Assembly: GCA_030609125.1 (NCBI GenBank)
Contig: JAUWCW010000001.1
Span: 1 to 31,091, forward strand
Direction: 5' to 3'
Source of the DNA: Candidatus Rokuibacteriota bacterium
Lineage (GTDB): Bacteria > JAUVQV01
Length of the DNA stretch: 31,091 nucleotides
The notes beneath the pieces are model-generated. The model searched no databases and was not told the origin of the DNA. It saw only the letters and a program-made list of their open reading frames with translations. This document shows positions 15,722 to 19,339 of the stretch, piece after piece. Within the stretch, counting starts at the first letter, position 1, and each line of letters opens with the position of its first letter. A program made the translations under genes and the position numbers.

Positions 15722-18700
15722 GTGCGCAAAGTCACGGCAGGTATAGCAGTCCTTCTGGCCACGGGAGGCTGGCTCCTCTGGAGCGCCGCCCCGGCGGGGG
15801 CGGTCTCCCCGTGGTCCCACTACGACCGGGCGGGCGGTCTCGTCGACAATACCGTTCAGGTTATCGCCCGCGCCGGCGACGGTACGCTCTGGGTCGGCAC
15901 CAGGGGGGGGCTCAGCCGCTTCGACGGTCACCAGTGGCGAAATGTCACGAAAGAGGACGGCCTTCCCGACGACGACATCAACACGATTTTTCTGGATCCC
16001 GGGGGGCAGGCCTGGCGCGGAACGAGCAGGGGGTTCGGTTTTTTGCGCGACGGGCGGTGGAGCCGCCTCGGCCTGCCCGGGGCCCGGACGGGCGAGAAGG
16101 TGTCGGTCGTCTCCGACGCCGAGGGGAGGATCTGGTTCGGCTACGCCGGCGGGCTGATGAGCTTCGGGGGGGACGAAGAGGGGCTGCAGACGGTGGCGGC
16201 CCTCGACGGCACCCCCGTGACGGCCCTTCTCGCCGACCGCGAGGGAGGGCTCTGGGTCGGCACCAGGGAGGACGTGAGGTACTTCGACGGCGTGGACTGG
16301 ACGGTCCACACCGCCGCCGCCGGTCTCTCGCCCGGGGTTGTGACCAGCCTGCTGGAGGATTCGCGCGGCACCGTCTGGTGCGGCACTGAGGGGGGGCTCT
16401 CCGAATACGACGGCATCGGCTGGACGGCCTACGGCGCCCGTGACGATCTGCCCAACACCCACGTGACCGCCCTGGCGGAGGATCGCAAGGGACGCGTGTG
16501 GATAGGCACCCGGGGCGGAGTCGGCTGGTACGACGGCTACGACTGGATCTGGCTCGGCGAGAGTGAGGGCATCCCCTCCGAGGAGGTGCTTGCGCTGCAG
16601 GCCGACCTGAACGGCTCGATATGGATCGGCACATCACACGGGCTGATAAAGTATGACACCGCCTGGCTTGCCCTCGATTCCGTCGGTTACGACGAAGAGT
16701 CCCCCCGGGGGCCCCTTCTGCGGGACGGTGACGGCCTGCTGTTCATGGGGACGGACGAGGGCTTTCTCGAGATGGACGGGCGCCAGGTGGAGCACGTGGG
16801 ACCCGACGACGACCTGACGGGTCGGGTGAGCGTCTTTCTTGCCGACCTCGAGGGGGACGTCTGGATCGGTACGGACAACGGGCTCTACGTTTACAGCAGG
16901 GGCAGCCTCCGGCACTTCACACCTCCGGAGTACCAGTCAGAGCTCCGCCGGTACGACTACGGCGCCGAGTCGGTGAAGGTTCGCCACTTCGATCGCTACA
17001 ACGGGCTCAAGGACGAGATGGTCACCGCCCTCTGGGGAGTGGGGGAAGAAGAGATGTGGGTCGGCACTCCGAAGGGGCTGAGCCTCTACGCCGACGGGCA
17101 ATGGGACCTGGTCGAAGAGAATGAGCTTCTGGGGAAAGGGGAGATCACCGCCCTGGAGGGTGTCGCGGGGGAGGTGCTCTGGGTGGGGACCCCGGAGGGG
17201 CTGTGGACCCGTCGCGACGAGGAGTGGTCCGTTGTCGGGGCGCTGGCGGGAAAGGCCGTTCGCACCCTCTTCCGGGACCGGGACGGGAACCTCTGGGCCG
17301 GGACCGATCGGGGGGTGTCGCTCTGGAACGGTGAGGCCTGGCGGGACGTCGACCCCGGTGCGGGCCTCTCGGGGAGCGCCGTAGCGGAAATATTCCAGGA
17401 CCGCACGGGTATCATGTGGTTCGGTACCGACGCGGGAGTGGCGAAGTTTGACGGCTCGTACTGGAGCGCCTTCAGCGAGGCCGACGGTCTGCACGCGAAC
17501 GCCATTACCTCCATCATGGAAAACGGGGACGAGCTCTGGTTCGGCTCCTCCGAGGGGGTGACCCTCTACCGTCCCGACCGCGCGGCCCCCGACACGAGCC
17601 TGAAGGCCCCCCCCGGCGGGGTGGTGGGAACTTCGAGCTACCTCTTCGAGTTCGCCGCTTCGGACTTCGAGACCCCCCCGGGCAGGATGCGCTACTCCTG
17701 GCGCCTCGACGACGGCGAATGGAGCGACTTCGGCCGCGAGGCGCGGGTGACGGTGCTGGATCTGGCCAACGGAACCCACACCTTTGCCGTTCGCGGCATG
17801 GACCAGGGCCTCAACATCGACCCCACTCCCGCCGTGGTGAGTTTCCAGGTCGACACGGGGGTCTTCGACCTGGAAGTGGTGGAGATCGCCTTCGAGGACC
17901 TCTACGCATCTCTCTACCAGTTCTACGTCGCCGACAGGGACTTTGAGAAGAGGTCTCCGGCGCGGGTCAGCATCAGGAACAAGTTCGACAAGCCTCTTCG
18001 TGTGAAGGTCAGCTTCTTCATCCCGGGGCTGATGGATTTTCCCGGCGACCGGATCGTCACCATCGGTCCCGGCGAGGTTCTTCCCGTCCCCCTGAGGGTC
18101 GGGCTGAGCGACGCGGTTCTGGGGCTGGAGGAGACGGCGGCCCGCCAAGCCCTGGTCAAGCTGCAGTACAGCCTCCGTGGGGAGATGAAGGAGTCGTCGG
18201 TTTCCCGGTCGGTGACGATCTTCGAGAAGCACAGCATGACGTGGGAGGAGCCGGGCCGGGTCGGGCTCTACGTGACGCACCTGGACCCCGTGGTGGAGCA
18301 GTTCGCCCGCGGGGTTGTGAGTCAGTTCAGGGAGGATGAGAAGGAGACCATAATCTACGACAATCTCCTGCGGGGGATCGAAATCTTCGACGCCCTCGGC
18401 GCGTACGGCGTGCGCTACATCCCCGACCCCGAAAACCCCTACGGCAGTCTGGCTGCCGGGGGAGGAGTGCTCGACCTGATCCGCTTCCCCCGGGAGACCC
18501 TGGTGATGAGGTCCGGCGACTGCGACGACGTCTCCGTGCTCTACGCGGCCCTCCTTCAGAACATAGGGATCGACACGGCCCTCGTCGACGTCTACGATCA
18601 CGTCTTCGTCATTTTCGACACCGGGCTCAAAAGGGGGCAGTCGGGTCAGCTGACCCGGGACGCTGCGCTGCTGTACGTGGACGAGCAGGACCGGGTCTGG

Positions 18701-19339
18701 GTTCCGGTGGAGACCACCCTCCTGGGCAAGTCCTTCTCCGAAGCGTGGAGAACGGGCGCCCGGATGCTGGAGGAGCGGAAGTACGAGATCATCGAAATCA
18801 AGGAAGCCTGGAAGAAGTACCCGCCCATCCACCTCCCGGACGAGGCGCCGACGGTGGCCGTTCCGTCCCGGAGAGAAATCTGGCCCCTCTTCGAACAGGA
18901 CCTGAAGATACAGGAGCAGACCCTGGTGGGCGGCAGGGTGATGAAGCTCCAGCGGAAGCTGATGAAGCATCCCGCCGACGTGGCGGCTCTCAACTCCCTG
19001 GGGATTCTCCTGGCGAAGCACGGGTACCTCCTCCAGGCGGAGGCCCGTTTCAGGAAGGTTGTCGATCTGGCCCCCGGCTTTGCCGGGGGGCACAGCAACC
19101 TGGCAAACGTTCTTTACGAGAGGGAGGTGTACGAAGAGGCCATCGAACGGTACCTCCAGTCTCTTGCGTTCGATCCCGACTGCCCGGATGTTCACTTCGA
19201 GCTGGCTCTGAGGTTTCGCGATGGGGGCAGGTTCGACAGGGCCCGCGAACACTATCGGCTGGCGATGGATCTCGATGTGGATCTGGGGTCCGGGGCCGGC
19301 GGTGAAACTGTCATAACGGTTGAAAGGAGGGAACCATGA
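15722..19339 (+). CDS. Secreted multidomain protein: 14 two-component-regulator propeller repeats + Y_Y_Y + Ig-like + transglutaminase-like domain + TPR
   Basis: Signal peptide (MRKVTAGIAVLLATGG...AGA); 14 W/FxG(T/S/Y) propeller blades; YSWRLDDGEW...GTHTFAVR (Y_Y_Y-like); GDCDD...DHVF...WVPVETT; three C-terminal TPR-like repeats; no TM segment after the signal peptide. Confidence 0.8.
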   Translation: MRKVTAGIAVLLATGGWLLWSAAPAGAVSPWSHYDRAGGLVDNTVQVIARAGDGTLWVGTRGGLSRFDGHQWRNVTKEDGLPDDDINTIFLDPGGQAWRGTSRGFGFLRDGRWSRLGLPGARTGEKVSVVSDAEGRIWFGYAGGLMSFGGDEEGLQTVAALDGTPVTALLADREGGLWVGTREDVRYFDGVDWTVHTAAAGLSPGVVTSLLEDSRGTVWCGTEGGLSEYDGIGWTAYGARDDLPNTHVTALAEDRKGRVWIGTRGGVGWYDGYDWIWLGESEGIPSEEVLALQADLNGSIWIGTSHGLIKYDTAWLALDSVGYDEESPRGPLLRDGDGLLFMGTDEGFLEMDGRQVEHVGPDDDLTGRVSVFLADLEGDVWIGTDNGLYVYSRGSLRHFTPPEYQSELRRYDYGAESVKVRHFDRYNGLKDEMVTALWGVGEEEMWVGTPKGLSLYADGQWDLVEENELLGKGEITALEGVAGEVLWVGTPEGLWTRRDEEWSVVGALAGKAVRTLFRDRDGNLWAGTDRGVSLWNGEAWRDVDPGAGLSGSAVAEIFQDRTGIMWFGTDAGVAKFDGSYWSAFSEADGLHANAITSIMENGDELWFGSSEGVTLYRPDRAAPDTSLKAPPGGVVGTSSYLFEFAASDFETPPGRMRYSWRLDDGEWSDFGREARVTVLDLANGTHTFAVRGMDQGLNIDPTPAVVSFQVDTGVFDLEVVEIAFEDLYASLYQFYVADRDFEKRSPARVSIRNKFDKPLRVKVSFFIPGLMDFPGDRIVTIGPGEVLPVPLRVGLSDAVLGLEETAARQALVKLQYSLRGEMKESSVSRSVTIFEKHSMTWEEPGRVGLYVTHLDPVVEQFARGVVSQFREDEKETIIYDNLLRGIEIFDALGAYGVRYIPDPENPYGSLAAGGGVLDLIRFPRETLVMRSGDCDDVSVLYAALLQNIGIDTALVDVYDHVFVIFDTGLKRGQSGQLTRDAALLYVDEQDRVWVPVETTLLGKSFSEAWRTGARMLEERKYEIIEIKEAWKKYPPIHLPDEAPTVAVPSRREIWPLFEQDLKIQEQTLVGGRVMKLQRKLMKHPADVAALNSLGILLAKHGYLLQAEARFRKVVDLAPGFAGGHSNLANVLYEREVYEEAIERYLQSLAFDPDCPDVHFELALRFRDGGRFDRAREHYRLAMDLDVDLGSGAGGETVITVERREP

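Follow-up and report, generated by a model that had tools for sequence, protein, structure and literature searches.

How is a CHASE2 receptor switched? The CHASE2 domain was defined in 2003. In the papers searched, the input to this domain is still described as unknown (PMC5192318). A contig of a Candidatus Rokuibacteriota bacterium (GenBank JAUWCW010000001.1) raises the question in concrete form; the whole stretch of 31,091 nucleotides was analyzed and is termed the window here. Three neighboring genes on its forward strand encode, in order, an exported protein that joins a sensor ectodomain of the hybrid two-component type to a transglutaminase fold, a small secreted protein, and a histidine kinase with a CHASE2 domain. 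In the reading favored here, which we hold to be somewhat probable, the large protein works in the periplasm as a processing enzyme, acting on the small partner or together with it, and thereby sets the CHASE2 receptor; its propellers would be coupled to this process. CHASE2 receptors recur in unrelated bacteria beside an intact-looking periplasmic cysteine enzyme and an obligate partner with an invariant motif, and this three-protein set provides a testable lead on how such receptors are switched.

In the window, the stop codon of the enzyme gene (15722..19339, + strand) overlaps the start codon of the partner gene (19336..19797, + strand) in the sequence ATGA, and the partner stop codon likewise overlaps the start of the kinase gene (19797..22211, + strand). 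By Pfam and hydropathy, the kinase has a first transmembrane (TM) helix at about residues 34-56, a periplasmic CHASE2 domain, three TM helices at about residues 348-415, and PAS, HisKA, and HATPase domains. The order of enzyme, small protein, CHASE2 kinase, and a ComF-like gene is kept in all readable orthologous loci, down to 38% identity, and the cassette is retained in loci L001, L003, L007-L010, L016, L017, L019, and L021. A scan of the genome contigs returns only four true orthologues (L007-L010), and the window's own genome holds a single copy of the transglutaminase-fold module. That genome also encodes a second CHASE2 protein, located outside the window (G000:C297:6354-7298). In L010 and in L021-L023 (G001:C3:187700-192200), the Reg_prop-type orthologue and its CHASE2 kinase each match as several fragments that change reading frame, probably through frameshifts in the assembly, with real decay as the alternative. 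The first-pass annotation, made from the letters of the window, had linked the enzyme to the small downstream protein and to the CHASE2 protein, and the gene order kept in orthologues and recurring in distant relatives argues for such a functional link.

The enzyme gene, recognized from its open reading frame (ORF), translation, Pfam matches, and homologues, is intact, with a GTG start and 1205 uninterrupted amino acids (aa). As read from translation and hydropathy, its product begins with a Sec-type signal peptide (aa 1-27; 15722..15802), in which N-terminal basic residues are followed by a hydrophobic stretch and a cleavage site at about AGA/VS; no lipobox cysteine was found in the N-terminus by sequence and hydropathy. 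The sole other hydrophobic 19-mer, residues 937-955, lies inside the helix opened by Cys934 (residues 934-947 of the AlphaFold2 (AF2) model), so no TM helix follows the signal peptide. The protein is thus predicted to be exported and soluble. Residues 31-625, approximately (15812..17596), form 14 Reg_prop blades, or two seven-bladed propellers, which are evident from Pfam (Reg_prop, E 1e-43), a PDB sequence search, and a regular expression for the blade signature W-x-G-T...G-L. The expression finds 12 of the blades, and two degenerate ones, at W178 and F340, were read in the translation. Blades are spaced by about 40 aa with a single gap of 65 aa (381 to 446), where an insertion of about 25 aa separates blades 9 and 10. 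The sequence matches in the PDB are ectodomains of Bacteroides hybrid two-component proteins (4a2l, E 7e-39; 3v9f; 3ott), and there is a sub-threshold match to the NCBIfam model of PorZ (E 1.9e-12). A Y_Y_Y-like Ig domain follows at about aa 640-712 (17639..17857); its Pfam match is weak (E 0.033 at 652-710) and colinear with residues 709-776 of 4a2l.

Pfam and NCBIfam scans find no HisKA, HATPase, or REC domain in the enzyme, and the kinase, receiver, and AraC domains and TM helix of hybrid two-component sensors were not found in its chain. Instead, an Ig-like beta-sandwich (aa 715-840; 17864..18241), placed by the AF2 model and fold matches, precedes a transglutaminase-fold core (aa 841-1045; 18242..18856) that includes the sequence GDCDD and is recognized by profiles as well. 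Within this core are the codons of a candidate triad, Cys934 (18521-18523), His960 (18599-18601), and Glu997 (18710-18712). Three tetratricopeptide repeats (TPRs) at about aa 1076-1190 (18947..19291), detected by Pfam as TPR_2, TPR_11, and TPR_12 at residues 1104-1185, form the tail. The observation of an exported propeller-transglutaminase protein is therefore confirmed, and everything that the first-pass annotation had described of its layout is correct: the signal peptide without a later TM helix or kinase, the 14 repeats with their insertion, the hybrid-two-component plan with its less certain Y_Y_Y part, and the Ig-like segment, transglutaminase/papain-like core, and TPR tail.

Alignments indicate that the C-terminal portion of about 490 aa, comprising the Ig-like sandwich, the transglutaminase-fold core, and the three TPRs, is one conserved unit. 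An exhaustive HMMER search with residues 730-1070 recovers 2,302 representative clusters (at 50% identity) with E <= 0.001, 1,117 of which fall below 1e-30. This module family is large and has neither a characterized member nor a Pfam model of its own. Its signature of Y899, D918, GDCDD, H960, P-x-E997, F1005, and a TPR tail is fully present in the window protein. The parts preceding the module vary among Reg_prop, NHL, YncE-type, and other domains, whereas the region that follows is a TPR-bearing tail, which in three quarters of the members measures 135-160 aa. Of the 202 members with an M start, 168 have a hydrophobic stretch resembling a signal peptide at the N-terminus. The constant tail, signal segments, and varied heads point to an extracytoplasmic enzyme unit with interchangeable targeting or sensing heads. 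Several rarer arrangements were also seen. An outer-membrane-barrel-like N-terminus with a TraF_2/PorV-like signature stands before the module in P0046, P0059, P0062, and P0073; a cytoplasmic P-loop NTPase-like segment (GERRxGK motif, recognized by eye) does so in P0164, P0202, and P0233, the first two of which have a predicted TM helix; and P0075 has an FHA domain and a TM helix in this position. At L059:8823-10448, the gene of a module member is overlapped at its 3ʹ end by a gene for a Ser/Thr kinase.

Whether the core is likely to be an active enzyme can be judged from conservation and fold. Cys934, His960, and Glu997 are invariant in three alignments, of 20 orthologues (37-88% identical over their full length), 46 homologues, and 141 homologues. 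At the depth of the last alignment, approximately 30% identity, only ten positions are invariant (Y899, D918, G932, D933, C934, D936, H960, P995, E997, and F1005), and D933-C934-D935-D936 is invariant or nearly so in both homologue alignments. Loss of the triad among homologues, which would have spoken against the first-pass annotation, is thus not seen. An AF2 model of residues 715-1205 built on the 141-sequence alignment has a predicted local distance difference test (pLDDT) of 94.2 and a predicted template modeling score (pTM) of 0.92; a model from the single sequence (pLDDT 36.6) was discarded. In the alignment-based model, residues 715-835 match Ig-like sandwiches with Z-scores of 10-12 (GH2 Ig, HAP2 domain III, and MG domains), and residues 840-1065 (model residues ~125-350 in VIA-align) match transglutaminase folds, including 3kd4 (Z 10.4), 9crn (9.1), 3isr (9.0), and mouse PNGase 2f4o (8.8). 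CEP76 and PNGase are among the matching Swiss-Prot models, and clusters of the AlphaFold Database match at TM-scores of about 0.9, several being automatically named transglutaminase-like. Foldseek against the PDB is dominated by Ig-like matches, with TG2 only at ranks 10 and 47. By sequence or profile, the module matched no solved structure, apart from a weak match to a DRC7 helix (E 1.4).

Profile comparisons lead to the same superfamily. In Pfam, residues ~917-958 of the enzyme give weak Transglut_core and DUF553 matches, the former scoring 17.6 bits, below the gathering cut-off of 23; across the family, 56 of 84 members match Transglut_core (E <= 0.01), with a best E of 3.9e-6. When the family was aligned by hhalign with 21 canonical Transglut_core domains taken from related genomes, the probability was 97% (E 1e-10), with Cys934 placed on the catalytic cysteine and Glu997 on the aspartate of D-P-T. 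Against one TgpA-like sequence, the cysteine region alone aligned, again with Cys934 on the catalytic residue. In the model, Cys934 opens a helix (model residues 220-233), and His960 stands at the start of a strand (247-256) that forms a hairpin with the strand of Glu997. His960 is taken as the catalytic histidine because of its invariance, this position, and its PNGase-like spacing. It lies 26 residues after Cys934, and Glu997 lies 37 residues further, a distance that includes a 20-aa insertion; the Cys-to-His distance in PNGase is 27 (Cys191 and His218 in yeast). Glu997, invariant in 141 sequences, occupies a position where canonical families hold aspartate; Glu for Asp reads as a conservative variant and not a loss. 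The evidence supports a modeled transglutaminase/papain-like fold with an invariant Cys-His-Glu set as the candidate catalytic centre, with topology and profile alignment as the basis for its putative geometry.

The small partner (153 aa; 19336..19797, identified as an ORF with homologues and labeled a "mini-FecR") has a signal peptide only. Its homologues fall into 80 clusters, all of about 150 aa and at least 51% identical by BLASTP over the aligned part, so this partner family is confined to the window's lineage. The C-terminal half is the conserved part. It holds an invariant segment, T124-G-V-R-G-T129-E...K-R-E-H143-Y-W145 (19705..19770), defined from the partner alignment and a hidden Markov model (HMM), in which T124-G-V-R-G-T129 and K-R-x-H-x-W are invariant; the core spans about 55 aa and consists of a helix, then T-x-G-V-R-G-T-E, then HYW. 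This ~55-aa segment is found also in partners that lack any FecR-like part, and its homologue in the partners of a second class of cassette, the NHL type, reads G-x-R-G-A-E...PYW.

NHL-type cassettes extend the association well beyond the orthologues. In six genomes of the phylum searched for CHASE2, NHL-type paralogues of the enzyme (30% identical) also adjoin a CHASE2 protein. Two such loci (L055 and L056) encode, in order, a CHASE2 nucleotide cyclase, an NHL-FN3-module-TPR giant, and a small secreted protein carrying ...ETTAVGGVRGAK...GLYWK...; the cyclase assignment is Pfam-tested in L055 and is based in L056 on a CHASE2 HMM match with close N-terminal likeness. The partner motif in the paralogous NHL-type cassette of the phylum is TTAVGGVRGAK..LYWK. 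The same trio of genes is found in unrelated metagenome and metagenome-assembled genome loci (L057 and L058), and in one gammaproteobacterial locus the enzyme is accompanied by a partner with ...VTAVTGTRGAQ...PVWK, while CHASE2 is absent. Small HMMs were then used to score 80 metagenome loci of the NHL type. As a descriptive and not a statistical tally, the partner gene is directly downstream in 74 of the 74 loci with at least 450 nt of downstream sequence, and a CHASE2 protein is adjacent in 24 of the 35 with at least 1,500 nt upstream. Of the nine CHASE2 neighbors tested, eight are CHASE2 class III cyclases, and the ninth ORF has CHASE2 alone. The NHL-type partners, which have a TPR/YbgF-like domain of their own, share the consensus ...W..LRA..P....T.TAG.RGAEATES.L.PYW. 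An HMM made from the 74 NHL-type segments alone finds the window partner as its sole match among the six-frame ORFs of the window (E 2e-5), aligning LLKARLERMRSKVSAP..QVTPTTGVRGTEQTEE. This match and the tallies define the conserved core of the system as the enzyme and a segment-bearing partner, usually with a CHASE2 receptor.

Among the loci without CHASE2, L004 (4038-7864, - strand; gammaproteobacterial) has the module gene divergent beside a MoxR-type AAA ATPase, a 335-aa protein, and a TgpA-type transglutaminase operon, a neighborhood that may be coincidence.

The first-pass annotation had likened the partner to FecR, a type of protein known to be controlled by proteolysis. This analogy turns out to be weak. 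Among 29 partner homologues, 6 touch the Pfam FecR model (PF04773), with a best E of 0.012, and the hhalign match to E. coli FecR covers 25 residues at E 0.02 (partner 54-78 to FecR 120-144), which makes membership in the FecR family marginal; 23 of the 29 touch DUF7354 below its cut-off. Neither the cytoplasmic anti-sigma segment nor the TM helix of the FecR family was found in the partner, and no extracytoplasmic function (ECF) sigma gene is present among the window ORFs scanned against Pfam. E. coli FecR cleaves itself between Gly181 and Thr182 (PMC12036975). The invariant R-G-T of the partner (residues 124-130; window 19705-19725) also holds a Gly-Thr pair, and the hhalign match is roughly colinear with the FecR site. 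NHL-type partners have G-A at that position, which rules out non-enzymatic G-T self-cleavage as the general mechanism.

The binding of the two proteins was modeled with enzyme residues 715-1205 and partner residues 27-153, on alignments built for this analysis, alongside three controls. The median score of the pair is 0.35, and that of the best control is 0.00. Of 80 solved complexes, 58 attain the mark used for such scores, as do 2 of 110 mismatched pairs, yet only 7 of the 80 attain it at 0.60 or under, and passes in that lower range are wrong more often than right unless the pairing was likely beforehand. The confident predicted contacts join partner residues 128-149 to the TPR region (~1088-1163, with 1196-1202) and to enzyme residues 876-881, 949-951, and 965-976. 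The prediction tentatively fits docking of the conserved partner segment on the TPR/enzyme part and is silent on catalysis.

Taken together, these features suggest how the system may operate. The enzyme would be an exported, soluble periplasmic protein of about 1,180 aa, the N-terminal half of which, with its two Reg_prop propellers and Y_Y_Y-like domain, would serve as a ligand-binding ectodomain of the hybrid two-component type. Its C-terminal unit would recognize the invariant helix/T-G-V-R-G-T-E/HYW segment of the partner, docking it probably in the TPR groove beside the catalytic sheet, and would most likely cut this segment or otherwise alter one of its amide bonds, the chemistry being possibly proteolysis, transamidation, or deamidation. 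In turn, the activity of the adjoining CHASE2-PAS histidine kinase would be set by the state of this pair, while the propellers would couple the system to an external cue, probably polymeric or a glycan by analogy with glycan-binding hybrid sensors. Seen this way, the module resembles a portable device for periplasmic processing. A far-reaching and rather doubtful extension would have CHASE2 receptors, or at least many of them as a large class, respond to proteolysis in the periplasm and not directly to a small molecule. The enzyme would process its partner at G-x-R-G-(A/T)-E, the product or the complex would be the CHASE2 ligand, and the window would hold this device rebuilt with a glycan-sensor-type Reg_prop ectodomain and a kinase output.

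Several findings weigh against the processing of the partner by the enzyme as a step in CHASE2 signaling. The hhalign comparison leaves His960 off the canonical histidine, as loop insertions flank the strand on opposite sides in the two families. The score of the predicted complex is weak, and its confident contacts exclude Cys934, His960, and Glu997. The tallied loci are related to one another and not independent, and CHASE2 is missing beside 11 of the 35 NHL-type loci and in L004, L005, L006, and L059, from which it follows that the pair of enzyme and partner does not need a CHASE2 gene next to it in order to act. The position of those contacts, which fall on the TPRs and on one side of the catalytic sheet but not on the triad residues, would suit a partner that is a trans-acting inhibitor, pro-domain, or adaptor instead of a substrate. 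The true substrate would then be a CHASE2 loop in the periplasm, a protein of the envelope, or a peptide of peptidoglycan, and a ligand of the propellers would free the partner. Strict co-encoding of the partner, as is often the case for inhibitors and chaperones, and the TPR/YbgF-like domain of NHL-type partners are in keeping with this possibility. It is nevertheless unlikely, as conservation in the partner is highest in a short linear motif, G-x-R-G-(A/T)-E, which is what one expects of a site to be recognized or cleaved more than of a folded inhibitor. Nor do the cassettes share any other conserved protein that could be the substrate.

The target might also lie in the envelope. Reg_prop ectodomains of hybrid two-component systems bind oligosaccharides, and PorZ presents anionic lipopolysaccharide, which provides a model for propellers that present a glycan. 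By this account, the enzyme would be no part of the sensor but an amidase or transamidase directed at the envelope or a glycoconjugate, with PNGase-like or sortase-like logic, and the CHASE2 kinase would only regulate it or sense its product indirectly. The closest solved relatives of the N-terminal half are indeed ectodomains of this hybrid two-component kind, PorZ gives its sub-threshold match, PNGase is among the closest folds, and some members have no CHASE2 neighbor or are fused to outer-membrane barrels. However, adjacency to CHASE2 recurs over differing propellers, outputs (kinase or cyclase), and gene orders, which is hard to explain by co-regulation alone, and genes for glycan synthesis or secretion are not conserved in the cassettes; an envelope target is accordingly distinctly unlikely. 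A last alternative starts from the existence of inactive transglutaminase folds, such as the Rad4/XPC-type relatives. If the window core were a non-catalytic binding module of this kind, the protein would serve the CHASE2 kinase as a scaffold or co-receptor; the glutamate in place of the usual aspartate and the Transglut_core score beneath its cut-off would be readily accommodated. Preservation of Cys, His, Glu, and the flanking GDCDD in 141 sequences at such low identity is the pattern of an active centre and unexpected in a scaffold, and a pseudo-enzyme is on this account very improbable. The reading of a processing enzyme that works on or with its partner thus stays the preferred one.

Further features surround the cassette. 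A 243-bp AT-rich gap 5ʹ of the enzyme gene holds a weak sigma-70-like promoter match, TTGTCG-17-AATAAT (15541..15569, + strand; a consensus match only, at 9 of 12 positions), and no sigma-54 promoter match is found upstream of the gene in the window, where a divergent rluD-like gene lies. Downstream of the kinase are a LexA-like gene (22208-22810, + strand), found only in the window's sub-lineage, and the ComF-like phosphoribosyltransferase gene (22820-23575, + strand) that is kept in orthologous cassettes. The other full cassettes, L001, L003, and L008, lack the LexA-like gene and have the ComF-like gene directly 3ʹ of the kinase gene. Directly 5ʹ of the enzyme gene in L003 (5195-7995), L007, L008, and L009 is a HAMP histidine kinase, a second kinase match in all four; in L003, it is followed after a 6-bp gap by a sigma-54-dependent response regulator. 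In contrast to the window, some orthologous cassettes thus stand behind a gene for a sigma-54 activator.

Among known systems, the transglutaminase-like superfamily (PF01841, PNGase, and the putative proteases 3kd4 and 3isr) has the same fold, as the structural matches (Z 8.8-10.4) and the profile probability of 97% indicate, and in both, the nucleophilic cysteine is at the N-terminus of a helix, with the acid and, in the window protein, the candidate histidine on neighboring strands. The enzyme differs in its glutamate, the 20-aa insertion between His and Glu, and the acidic neighbors of the cysteine in G-D-C-D-D. Unlike the superfamily at large, the module family always has an Ig-like domain in front and three TPRs behind, and the window member scores below the Pfam gathering cut-off. 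In logic, the enzyme resembles LapG and DvhG (BTLCP, Peptidase_C93), cysteine proteases of the periplasm that have a transglutaminase fold and work with the periplasmic domains of the membrane signaling receptors LapD and DvhD (PMC4359373, PMC13090378). In DvhG, a relative of LapG, D316 and E318 flanking C317 bind Ca2+ (PMC13090378), and by sequence likeness of D-C-D-D to this site, a lead, the acidic residues flanking Cys934 may form a putative Ca2+ site. Moreover, the LapG substrate has a short conserved cleavage motif, and the window partner likewise has a short conserved motif. The two systems diverge in the glutamate that ends the triad, the fused propellers and TPRs, and the use of CHASE2 instead of LapD as receptor. 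Membership of the LapG family was considered and ruled out by the glutamate, by the absence of any PF06035 (Peptidase_C93) match in the enzyme at E <= 1, and by the absence of LapG from the top 50 structural matches of the module. LapD-type receptor, adhesin, and type 1 secretion genes were not found among the neighbors (the small partner, CHASE2 kinase, LexA-like, and ComF-like genes).

On the sensor side, the Bacteroides hybrid two-component ectodomains (BT4663, PDB 4a2l; 3v9f; 3ott) likewise have 14 Reg_prop blades and a Y_Y_Y-type domain; in the window, by contrast, the ectodomain shares its chain with an enzyme, and a protein of its own, with CHASE2, supplies the kinase. SMb20495, a large TPR protein of Sinorhizobium, is a Clr target in a CHASE2-cyclase pathway (PMC5498481). 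It was considered as a member of the module family and dropped, as tblastn of the plasmid collection gave TPR-level matches only, none on a Sinorhizobium replicon. Neither the architecture nor a transglutaminase-fold partner of CHASE2 is described in the full-text literature searched, and no earlier functional assignment, which would have counted against the first-pass annotation, was found there. In the Burkholderia BiofilmReg operon and a pair in P. aeruginosa, a secreted FecR-like protein is encoded directly before a CHASE2-PAS kinase (PMC5192318). These FecR-CHASE2 operons encode a LysM-FecR protein along with a response regulator and DUF4136 but lack an enzyme of the transglutaminase fold, whereas the FecR likeness of the window partner is marginal.

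The NHL-type cassettes are the nearest counterpart, with the same C-terminal module and invariant residues, the same partner segment, and a CHASE2 neighbor. Compared with them, the window has Reg_prop/Y_Y_Y propellers instead of NHL/FN3 domains, a trio that is co-directional and translationally coupled, and a partner with a FecR-like head, a short tail, and G-V-R-G-T, where the NHL-type partner has a YbgF/TPR-like C-terminal domain. The window version therefore adds the module placed behind an ectodomain of the hybrid two-component type and a PAS-histidine kinase output in place of the cyclase.

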